Assembly: GCF_056746865.1 (NCBI RefSeq)
Contig: NZ_CM163382.1
Direction: 5' to 3' (one strand)
Length of the DNA stretch: 64,000 nt
The position numbers are program-made. Numbering within the stretch: the stretch's first letter is position 1; each line of letters starts with the position of its first letter. Positions 53,501 to 56,287 of the stretch are shown here, piece by piece.

Positions 53501-56287
53501 GTGTCATGGCTGACGCCCTGCGCCTGGCAATCTGCGATGCGGGAAGTGGGTGAACTACAGCCAGCCAGTAATATAACCGCCAGCAGGGAAAACGATTTAA
53601 TGGAGCTATTCATCATTGTTAACCTTAAATAATGTACGGAAAATTGCGAATAAGAAATTGCTGTTAAAATTAGAACGAATATCCCACGCCGACACCCGCA
53701 CCGAAATCAGATTGTGTATCCGCAGAAATACCTGCTTTAAGTACCGTATGCGTTCCGGCATTAAAAGATGTTCCTACAGACACCGCAGATTCACCGTTGT
53801 ACGTTCCCGCTCCCGCTGACACCATCATCAAGTCACCGGTTTTCACCTGTGGTTGTGAGGCGATAGCGATGGCAGATGCAGTTCCCGCATTGGCTTCTTT
53901 ACGATTGTCCTCAACTTCGTTTTTCAGAGAATCGAAATGGTTATTGAGCGTAGTAATCTGCTGGCTATTATCCGCTACTCGTTTTTGCGTGTTGCTTAAC
54001 TGCTGATGCGTTTGGGTTACGTCTTGTGTCAGGCTGTCAATTTGTTCATGCGTTTGTGTTGAGTCTTGCGCCAGACGCTGAATTTGTTCCCCGTACTGCA
54101 CACTATCGATATGCTGTTGCGTTGCCTGGTTAGTCGCCAGAGTATCTATTTTTTGTTTTTGTTCTGCTGCAGTACGCGCATTCGCATCATTTTGTGCTCT
54201 CAGTCCGGCGTTAACCATCTCTTGATAATGTGCGTTGGTCTGGGCATCGCCAAGTGCGGAAACCGTTTTTTGCGTCGCGTCGATTTGTTTCTGCTGATCG
54301 TCCATTTGTTGCTGCTGGGTGTCAGCTTGTGCCTGTTGCGCATTGGCAGCGGCTGTCTGTCTGGCGTCAATCATGCTCTGATATCGGGCGGCAGTCTGCA
54401 CATCCCCGGTGGCGGCAACGGTTTTCCGGGTTTCGTCGAGTTGTTGCTGCTGGTCAGCAATATCGCTGCGGTTCTGTTCGATATTATTTTTGTTTTCTGT
54501 CACAGCACCGGAAAGTTTGACGCCGTTCATCAGAGCGGTGTTGGCGTTAGCGTTGGCATGGTCAGCCGTTGACTGGGCATGTGCGACATCGCCTTTTATG
54601 TTGGTGACGTCTGACTGCACTGCGGAGACATCATTACGGGTGTCGGCGATGGCGGCTTTATTGGCATCAATATCCGTCTGCGCCACCATAATGGCGTGCT
54701 GCGCGTCATCAGCTTTCATTGAAGCCCAGTTGGCGACATGTTGTGCGTCCTGAATGGCGGTATCCTGCCCGTTGTCGCGGACGATCTGTTTTTGCTCGTT
54801 TGATGCCAACAGTTTCTGCTGGTCGGCAATATCGCTGCGGTTCTGTTCGATGTTGTTTTTGTTTTCTGTCACAGCACCGGAAAGTTTGACGCCGTTCATC
54901 AGAGCGGTGTTGGCGTTAGCGTTGGCATGGTCAGCCGTTGACTGGGCATGTGCGACATCGCCTTTTATGTTGGTGACGTCTGACTGCACTGCGGAGACAT
55001 CATTACGGGTGTCGGTGATGGCGGCTTTGTTGGCATCAATATCCGTCTGCGCCACCGTGATGGCGTGCTGCGCGTCATCAGCTTTCAGTGAAGCCCAGTT
55101 GGCGGCATGTTGTGCGTCCTGAATGGCGGTATCCTGCCCGTTGTCGCGGTCGGTCTGCGCTTGATTGGTTATCGGGTTCAGCGTATTGGCGGGCTGTACG
55201 GGAGAGGCAGCTGTATTTTCCTGAGGTGTCGTTGTCCGGTAATCATGCGCAATCAGATAATTTTGTGCGGCTGCACTATTCCCTGTCCTTTCTAAAAATC
55301 GACCAATTTTCTGATCAATTTCCGATTGCGACATTCCTGGCTGGATTGCCGTTAATTCTGTCGTTGCCGCCTCAACAGTATCACCCGCAAACGCAGATGG
55401 ACTTACCGCGGTAGCAACAACGACAGCCAGTAAAGACAGCTTTACAGTTTTCATGCATTTTTTCTCTTTCAAAGTAAGTCACATATTTGTTTCTATAAGC
55501 AACGTAAAACGTTGTTATAAGAATTAATCTGCGTTGCAATTTGATCGAAATCTACGCCGCCATTTGTGTGATGTAAAGCGCATTTTTGTCTGGTGTAAGC
55601 GTAAACATCACCAATAAGAAACAAAAAATGTTTCTTATATAAATAAAATCGAAAATCATTTTGTGCTCTTTCAATGTAAAAAAGAGTAAAGACTTGTTTT
55701 GATAAGCGAAATAAATTCTGTTTCTGGACTAAACGTGAAGCGGTTCCTGATGTGTGCTAAAATGCGTTTCTTTGATAAATCTCAATTTTTAAGAGGTTTA
55801 CGCCAGGCAGGAAAATTTAAATGAATGAATTTGAGAAGATTTTTAATGAAATGAATCTGGACCGGGCATTGCTACCGATCCTTTTTCGTTCGAACCGGTC
55901 AACAGTGTGGAAATATTTAAGTGGCGATAGTACGGCTCCTGCCTCAGCTATGTCACTGATTATGCTGTTGCAGTTAATCCAGAAACGAAACCCCGATCTG
56001 TTAGCCGAATGGTTAACGCTTTCTGATTTCACCATTCCGCCAGAAGTTTACCTGGACCAGCCTGATTACTGGAAAGGGTGGGTGTATACGCAACACAAGG
56101 TCAATAAAAACGTCCTGGAATATCTAAAAAAACATTATCCGGATGAAGACCAAAAAAACATGAATAAAGGTAGTGACGAGTAATTTGCCAATGCCAGTTA
56201 ATATAGCGGAGGCGGCCTACGATTCGGGCGCAGACTTCCAGGCATGATAAGACGCGCCCGCGCCGCATCAGGCATCAGCGCATAACC

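Follow-up and report, generated by a model that had tools for sequence, protein, structure and literature searches.

Organization of the ybbJ–cueR autotransporter gene

The 64,000-nucleotide stretch of Escherichia coli chromosome studied here (the window; NCBI RefSeq assembly GCF_056746865.1, contig NZ_CM163382.1) carries, between ybbJ and cueR, a gene for a predicted trimeric autotransporter (type Vc) with a passenger that is almost entirely coiled coil. Two near-identical copies of a 369-bp unit lie in tandem within the sequence for its stalk, and comparison with other E. coli genomes led us to read them as one state of a large-unit, in-frame variable number of tandem repeats (VNTR) in the coiled-coil stalk of a chromosomal type Vc autotransporter, the length of which changes by unequal exchange. 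We give this reading a probability of roughly 0.8. The autotransporter locus is 100% identical to that of the complete genome CFSAN061770. The features of the gene are listed below in window coordinates (aa, amino acid residues; ORF, open reading frame; pLDDT, predicted local distance difference test score).

53670–55454, minus strand: trimeric autotransporter gene, 594 codons plus stop, ATG at 55454 (ORF, Pfam anchor, and locus shared with Sakai ECs0548)
55386–55454, minus strand: putative signal peptide, aa 1–23, MKTVKLSLLAVVVATAVSPSAFA followed by GD (by inspection; kept in all allele families)
55149–55385, minus strand: N-terminal tip region, aa 24–102, with three short helices (27–35, 43–57 and 61–69) and then a Pro/Thr-rich linker (AlphaFold2, pLDDT ~80 for aa 30–70)
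54780–55148, minus strand (read 55148 to 54780): repeat unit 1, aa 103–225, variant L21/T31/T45, containing the 12-aa inter-unit linker (repeat finders and alignment)
54780–54815, minus strand: inter-unit linker KLLASNEQKQIV, aa 214–225, present only between the units and site of an 11-residue register shift (stutter)
54411–54779, minus strand (read 54779 to 54411): repeat unit 2, aa 226–348, variant M21/M31/A45; the repeated part stops near 54443–54447 and the final 36 nt are unique 3' flank
54120–54428, minus strand: older degenerate tandem repeat of ~51 aa (…KTVAATGDVQTAARYQSMIDA… and …KTVSALGDAQTNAHYQEMVNA…; BLASTP of the halves, 46% identity, E 8e-10)
54001–54089, minus strand: degenerate 42-bp (14-aa) tandem repeat in the proximal stalk (period 42, 78% matches; repeat-finder family D2)
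53673–53852, minus strand: YadA-like beta-barrel membrane anchor, aa 535–594 (Pfam PF03895, YadA_anchor, full model, E 1.4e-11)

The first mechanical start of the ORF is an in-frame TTG at 55472; MKTVKLSLLAVV is the start common to alleles of the gene. By inspection, the putative signal peptide has a basic n-region, a hydrophobic h-region and an AxA c-region. The anchor also matches the solved anchors of Hia (2gr7) and AtaA (9vnj), with E ~1e-6 by phmmer; a type Vc anchor gives four strands to a 12-stranded trimeric barrel. Between tip and anchor lie approximately 430 helical residues with a periodicity of 3.5 residues. The trimeric autotransporter assignment follows from the combination of signal peptide, heptad-periodic helical region and YadA-type anchor, and the same evidence bears out the preliminary description of this DNA in placing the repeat within an autotransporter stalk.

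A Pfam scan of the protein detected no head, neck or stalk-motif families. Head, neck and connector modules are common but not obligatory, and their absence does not exclude type Vc membership. The 79-residue tip had no Pfam match and no relatives in the PDB, and the Pro/Thr-rich linker that follows its three-helix region (aa 27–69) was modelled as disordered by AlphaFold2. Among solved structures, the autotransporter had no match to Eib or other solved stalks, and a PDB search with the unit gave only weak, non-significant matches to generic trimeric (viral) coiled coils. NCBIfam matches to Rad50, SMC and DndD, all far under the curated cut-offs, were dismissed as artefacts of coiled-coil composition. 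A scan for promoters and terminators at the gene found no enrichment over shuffled sequences; the ATG is preceded, at a distance of ~95 nt, by one weak -35/-10 match.

The AlphaFold2 monomer model (mean pLDDT 63) contains helices at residues 96–230, 239–349, 353–400 and 404–532. Two of its helix breaks, at aa 350–352 and 401–403, fall on the A-T-G-D and A-L-G-D motifs that open the 51-aa repeats. These sites could be short non-helical connector layers in the modelled stalk.

A 369-bp unit that preserves coiled-coil phase

Tandem Repeats Finder reported a single array at window positions 54443–55157, with a period of 369, 1.9 copies, 96% matches, no indels and a score of 1346. A seed-and-extend repeat finder paired 54443–54742 with 54812–55111 at 97% identity and a spacing of 369, and direct alignment agreed. 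Thus the array finders and pairwise alignment confirmed the coordinates, unit size and near-identity of the tandem duplication of 369 bp (123 aa) that had been placed at 54440–55160 with few differences between its copies. The unit is 123 codons, a multiple of three. Over the first 333 nt (111 codons), which we refer to as the core, the two copies differ at nine positions, of which five are synonymous and four non-synonymous, and no stretch of identity exceeds 160 nt. Identity over such a length cannot come from chance.

The last 36 nt of the period are unduplicated, which is why the array measures 1.9 rather than 2.0 copies: unit 1 ends in the linker KLLASNEQKQIV and unit 2 in the unique flank QQLDETRKTVAA, with 21 of 36 positions different. 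The linker bears only a loose likeness to the sequence directly upstream of unit 1 (…NQAQTD versus …NEQKQIV). Plus-strand ORFs at 54409–54753 and 54754–55122 lie inside the repeat; as genes they were rejected, being antisense mirror images of the duplication.

Analysis of hydrophobic periodicity gave a best period of 3.50–3.55 in each unit, with a single uninterrupted heptad register per unit. The register is 5 in unit 1 and 2 in unit 2, and this shift of +4 at the junction is exactly as expected because 123 = 16 × 7 + 11. One unit is 16 heptads plus one 11-residue stutter, so that a whole unit can be gained or lost with the coiled-coil phase kept.

Unit number among E. coli genomes

We searched 5,426 complete E. 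coli genomes for the autotransporter locus and its repeat unit. The locus was present in 1,416 of them and was always chromosomal (0 places on plasmids). A single-unit query matched 350 genomes at 610 places, with one to five per genome, while a junction-specific query of 126 nt matched 181 genomes at 225 places, with at most four per genome. The remaining ~1,066 locus-bearing genomes had no unit detectable by megablast. Representative loci (designated L) were fetched and translated, and an ORF was considered intact if it was open from signal peptide to anchor. Intact ORFs were verified for every unit number from zero to five:

0 units, 338 aa: O157 86-24 (L005) and PEC1013 (L014), intact ORF
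1 unit, 471 aa: PCN033 (L004) and DS566 (L013), intact ORF
2 units, 594 aa: the window and ECNB21-M121 (L012), intact ORF
3 units, 717 aa: L008 and L009, intact ORF
3 units and a further in-frame loss of 42 bp between DAQHA repeats, 703 aa: L003 and L016, intact ORF
4 units, 840 aa: L002 and L010, intact ORF
5 units, 963 aa: 18KM2445 (L007), intact ORF

Another data source yielded a second, independent five-unit protein (962 aa, 94% identical). From the match totals, together with at least seven four-unit records and one five-unit record, rather than from a per-genome table, we estimate that ~134 genomes carry one unit, ~181 two, ~27 three, ~7 four and ~1 five. The in-frame change of copy number between isolates that had been proposed for this repeat is thus directly visible, and size is not invariant even among related strains, near-identical haplotypes holding three versus four units.

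Given that a 369-bp repeat exceeds most short reads, and that the five-unit chromosomal allele occurs in a single complete genome, we considered whether the array might be an expanded or collapsed repeat produced by sequencing or assembly. The two units of the window are separated by nine diagnostic differences, the same structure occurs in ~146 complete genomes, and the locus has its exact counterpart in CFSAN061770; three- and four-unit alleles recur in several independent genomes, and the second five-unit protein comes from a different data source. With the diagnostic sites and the recurrence of the two-unit structure in more than 100 independently assembled complete genomes, an artefact has a negligible probability and was rejected.

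Smaller changes were also seen within the gene. In unit 1 of L003 and L016, a 42-bp in-frame deletion (corresponding to window ~55060–55101) drops HAANWASLKADDAQ between two short DAQHA direct repeats and yields the 703-aa protein; similar proteins of 702 aa recur in the protein database. The DAQHA repeats are a second, smaller-scale slippage site inside the unit. In GF60 (L011, 3242–3244), an in-frame TAG replaces a Gln codon in …ADDAQHAI… of unit 1, and in E04 (hit H39) an IS1 insertion lies in the autotransporter gene.

Probable unequal exchange between units, and its pace

Comparison of individual units revealed shuffling. At the nucleotide level, unit 1 of the four-unit allele L002 has the same sequence as unit 2 of L003, L009 and L016. 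Within the five-unit array of L007, a single base separates unit 1 from unit 2, and likewise unit 3 from unit 4, indicating recent internal duplications. At least five combinations of the variable residues 21 (L/M/Q), 31 (T/M) and 45 (T/A) were seen, and exchange therefore occurs inside units as well. Unit number also differs between closely similar haplotypes: L002 (four units) and L008 (three units) show five differences in ~3,850 nt of flanking and terminal sequence, with units that match one-to-one save the one that is missing; L004 (one unit) and L007 (five units) show two differences in 1,500 nt upstream; and the upstream region is identical in L011 (two units) and L003 (three units). 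Shuffled and mosaic units, together with near-identical haplotypes one unit apart, point to unequal recombination as the process that alters stalk length. Unit number would change by unequal homologous exchange, or by replication template switching, between units paired out of register on sister chromosomes or on incoming DNA, and the 160-nt identical tract would far exceed the minimum length for RecA-dependent recombination. Slipped-strand and unequal recombination had been suggested together; the unit shuffling, mosaics and haplotypes favour unequal exchange, whereas slipped-strand mispairing in the short-repeat sense fits a 369-bp unit poorly.

The preliminary description regarded the duplication as recent, which did not hold for the allele of the window. 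Its two cores have a dS (synonymous divergence) of ~0.07 and a dN (non-synonymous divergence) of ~0.016, and the same two-unit allele (≥99% identity) is carried by ~146 complete genomes from many hosts and countries. The duplication in the window is old relative to strain diversification and is stably inherited. All sampled rows at ≥99% identity were two-copy (25/25 in the unit search and 44 rows in a further search). Duplicate assemblies of the same strain were concordant in copy number, M12 and several of its laboratory "capsule mutant" derivatives had one junction each, and identical four-unit alleles were found in isolates from wastewater, human and marsupial sources.

These data bear on the possibility of a high-frequency contingency locus, at which switching within a clone would yield phase-like or antigenic heterogeneity during one colonization. 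In E. coli, recombination between tandem repeats of this size is frequent enough to measure; the two copies have a perfectly identical tract of 160 nt in common, and some near-identical haplotypes do differ in copy number. However, every sampled genome with the allele of the window has two units, the M12 derivatives and the duplicate assemblies are concordant, identical four-unit alleles come from unrelated sources, and extra near-identical units give no new epitopes. We consider such switching highly unlikely; the polymorphism is a slow evolutionary one between lineages, with changes that are rare over the span of clonal spread, and not a fast contingency switch.

Of the length or antigenic variation originally attributed to the repeat, it follows that variation in length, from zero to five units, stands, whereas antigenic variation through copy number is not supported, since near-identical units add no new epitopes. 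Antigenic diversity at the locus sits instead in deeply diverged allele families. Unit-less (338-aa, O157-type) and unit-bearing families differ at 25–38% of nucleotides in the N- and C-terminal parts of the gene, compared with 1–5% in the flanks. We also noted a third allele family, starting MKSVKL…, of 530–579 aa and 64–72% identity. With its diverged allele families and length variants, the locus would be a poor conserved target for typing or vaccine work.

Several points weigh against the reading of the array as a length-variable stalk that changes by unequal exchange. The AlphaFold2 model is a monomer of modest confidence, as its mean pLDDT of 63 indicates, and its helix is interrupted, with low confidence, where the units meet (aa 231–238; pLDDT <50 for 226–249), so that they could be joined by a hinge or connector and not by an unbroken stutter. 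The hendecad core positions at this junction would be polar (R, D, Q). Expression, trimerization, surface exposure and a role as an adhesin are predictions from the sequence of the autotransporter. The genome counts per copy number rest on match totals and not on a full per-genome table. Copy number is invariant in every sampled genome with the allele of the window, so that any adaptive tuning must be slow. Finally, the dN/dS of ~0.2 between copies and the premature stop in GF60 are equally compatible with a neutral length polymorphism.

Possible consequences of stalk length

Parallel coiled coils rise by ~0.148 nm per residue. Each unit would therefore add ~18 nm (123 × 0.148 nm) to a parallel trimeric fibre, and the series from zero to five units would span ~90 nm. 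A longer stalk would carry the N-terminal tip further from the outer membrane, and stalk length may in this way tune projection of the tip beyond O-antigen or capsule. One could envisage that the zero-to-five series is an adaptive length ruler, with ~18-nm steps matched to the O-antigen or capsule thickness of each lineage such that the tip is either exposed or shielded. We regard this as a speculative and rather unlikely explanation. If true, a ruler of this kind would extend the "Periscope" principle described below to obligate trimeric coiled coils, and would provide a natural isogenic-like series relating adhesin reach to surface-glycan shielding. The locus in any case offers a clean natural series of stalk lengths (zero to five units, an inferred ~18 nm each) in one uncharacterized E. 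coli surface fibre, convenient for relating adhesin reach to shielding by capsule or O-antigen.

The same series might instead be a neutral length polymorphism: long direct repeats are bound to recombine unequally, whole-unit insertions and deletions are tolerated by a coiled coil, and lengths drift with no adaptive role. Consistent with this, copy number is fixed within allele lineages, and the dN/dS of ~0.2 gives no sign of diversifying selection on the unit. Around three-quarters of locus-bearing genomes have no detectable unit, 74% of genomes have no locus at all, and inactivated alleles are known, through the premature stop in GF60 and the IS1 insertion in E04. Conversely, all eleven of the multi-unit arrays examined, GF60 excepted, are open throughout and retain an intact signal peptide and anchor, and the stalk length of autotransporters has measurable effects elsewhere (Cha; cited in PMC9704523). 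The unit length also keeps coiled-coil phase exactly, though this is equally expected under neutrality. On balance, neutral drift in length is a realistic prospect, at somewhat less than even odds.

Homologues of the unit

To survey the wider distribution of the unit, we searched 1.84 billion representative proteins exhaustively and obtained 31 proteins at E ≤ 1e-3, the strong ones belonging to the same Escherichia family as the window protein. P0047, a diverged one-unit allele, comes from the same locus of another Escherichia genome, and cryptic Escherichia lineages have one-unit proteins, which makes one unit probably the older state of the unit-bearing family.

The homologues are also relevant to the idea that the unit is a valency module, which itself binds a ligand in the stalk so that copy number sets the number of binding sites (avidity) rather than mainly reach, by analogy with immunoglobulin binding on Eib stalks and CEACAM binding on UspA1. 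The N-terminal motif of the unit, ANWASxKADDAxHAIxVAQTDID, is kept in distant homologues; in the homologue P0058 it directly follows the signal peptide, at the fibre tip, and its tryptophan is unusual in a coiled coil. Against a binding role, the unit has no detectable similarity to Eib or any solved stalk, its PDB matches are non-significant, and no ligand is known. A valency function therefore appears distinctly improbable.

Comparison with known surface fibres

The repeats of Cha, from a Haemophilus cryptic genospecies, are short (~28 aa) and vary spontaneously in culture. Like Cha, the ybbJ–cueR protein is a type Vc autotransporter with a passenger that contains a varying number of in-frame tandem peptide repeats; unlike Cha, its unit is 123 aa of pure coiled coil and has been seen to vary in number only between lineages, and the two are likened by description. 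In Cha, repeat number alters exposure and adhesion of the distal domain (Sheets and St Geme, 2011; McCann et al., 2014; cited in PMC9704523).

A similar comparison can be made with Saa, the autoagglutinating adhesin of Shiga toxin-producing E. coli. Both are trimeric autotransporters of E. coli that vary in size between strains; unlike the plasmid-borne Saa, the ybbJ–cueR gene is chromosomal in all 1,416 locus-bearing genomes. The repeat of Saa is ~37 aa. Searching 72,556 plasmids by tblastn with the 594-aa and 338-aa proteins gave only anchor-level matches, at 30–40% identity in the C-terminal part. Two E. coli plasmid matches were examined: an insertion sequence (IS)-flanked fragment of 304 aa, and a 767-aa protein on a large plasmid, which has a YadA-type head and no tandem repeats. 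Identity with Saa (Paton et al., 2001; summarized in PMC7247748) could not be shown, and "Saa-like" is a published label for the gene (PMC2323221).

Periscope Proteins are surface-anchored rods with tandem repeats of more than 50 residues, in which a strain-variable number of repeats sets projection of the tip (Whelan et al.; PMC9704523). The E. coli protein resembles them in its highly identical repeats of more than 50 residues (123 aa, cores with 97% DNA identity), its predicted outer-membrane anchor and its strain-variable repeat number, which ranges from zero to five units across E. coli. The class consists of monomeric single-chain rods of independently folding repeat domains, and trimeric autotransporters are explicitly excluded from it (PMC9704523); the E. 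coli unit, by contrast, is a heptad segment of a predicted trimeric coiled coil. The autotransporter thus works like a Periscope Protein yet is not a member of the class, and length polymorphism of the Periscope type, known from monomeric rods, is thereby extended to a stalk predicted to be a trimeric coiled coil.

NadA of Neisseria meningitidis and HadA of H. influenzae biogroup aegyptius are dominated by coiled coil, have no beta-rich head and show in-frame stalk indels between alleles. By description, the ybbJ–cueR protein is like them in having a passenger that is almost all coiled coil and a very small N-terminal tip; neither is known to carry near-identical tandem units longer than 100 aa in a copy series of zero to five. 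With UpaG/EhaG and Eib, it shares secretion type, anchor family and allelic variability between pathotypes (PMC7247748), whereas those proteins carry either YadA-like heads plus neck and stalk modules or stalks that bind immunoglobulin, and lie at other loci. A change of repeat number is a familiar way of altering the length of a surface fibre and not a new mechanism.

The four-gene islet and its annotation

The autotransporter gene is one of four in an islet between ybbJ and cueR, together with genes for a divergently transcribed 120-aa protein, a 140-aa lipoprotein and a 67-aa hydrophobic protein:

52994–53197, minus strand: gene for a 67-aa small hydrophobic protein, overlapping the lipoprotein stop (ORF; a 73-aa gene occupies the same position in L018)
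53194–53616, minus strand: gene for a 140-aa lipoprotein, directly downstream of the autotransporter gene and co-directional with it (lipobox LLAGC; annotated "lipoprotein" in O157)
55821–56183, plus strand: divergent gene for a 120-aa protein, possibly helix-turn-helix (Pfam gave no more than a weak MqsA-like hint; belongs to the conserved cassette)

Pfam and PDB searches with the 120-aa and 140-aa proteins gave nothing significant. The same four-gene cassette, in a different chromosomal context, accompanies P0069, a 37%-identical autotransporter from another organism (L018, 3346–6426). In L018, identity to the window proteins is 46% for the lipoprotein (E 4e-40) and 29% for the counterpart of the 120-aa protein (E 1e-9), and the small protein has 73 aa. 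Conservation of the cassette as a block (window 52994–56183) suggests that the neighbours are dedicated accessory or regulatory partners of the autotransporter. By analogy, the lipoprotein is perhaps a SadB-like helper, and together with the small membrane protein it could serve as a module dedicated to export or assembly.

In O157:H7 Sakai, the gene in this position is ECs0548, annotated "adhesin" and given as a "Saa-like protein" of S-loop 43 by Ogura et al. (2007; PMC2323221). According to a 2019 review, the characterized trimeric autotransporters of E. coli are Eib, Saa, UpaG and EhaG only (PMC7247748), and the ybbJ–cueR protein therefore appears uncharacterized. Its database names are generic ("adhesin" or "YadA-like family protein"). 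Literature searches by neighbour gene names or guessed EDL933 locus tags were uninformative, and only ECs0548 gave matches.

Among the alleles for which the RefSeq annotation, made with the Prokaryotic Genome Annotation Pipeline (PGAP), was compared with the full ORF (the window, L001–L004 and L007–L010), every multi-unit one has only its last ~349 codons annotated (53670–54719 in the window), from a Met within the final unit at window 54719. For the one-unit allele of PCN033, the annotated start lies 40 codons downstream of the true ATG. Because these starts are internal, the annotated proteins are without signal peptide and repeats even though the full ORF is open. As a result of this systematic mis-annotation, pan-genome and adhesin surveys under-call or mis-size the autotransporter gene.

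Beyond cueR, the window contains siiEA (~20.8 kb), a giant adhesin gene related to BapA/SiiE, and its type I secretion genes, at ~28471–52586 on the plus strand. The secretion genes beside siiEA encode an ATP-binding cassette (ABC) transporter (49252–51414) and an HlyD protein (51411–52586), and cueR is thus flanked by two adhesin systems. The equivalent of the siiEA region is split or frameshifted in O157 Sakai and in enteroaggregative E. coli (EAEC) 042. At the ybbJ-proximal intergenic border of the islet, two GC-rich palindromic elements (…GCCGCATCAGGC…), resembling repetitive extragenic palindromes or bacterial interspersed mosaic elements (REP/BIME), lie 100 bp apart within 56240–56373. 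Further along, the coding region of qmcA contains a weak 33-bp tandem repeat at 57089–57185 (2.9 copies, 73% matches).

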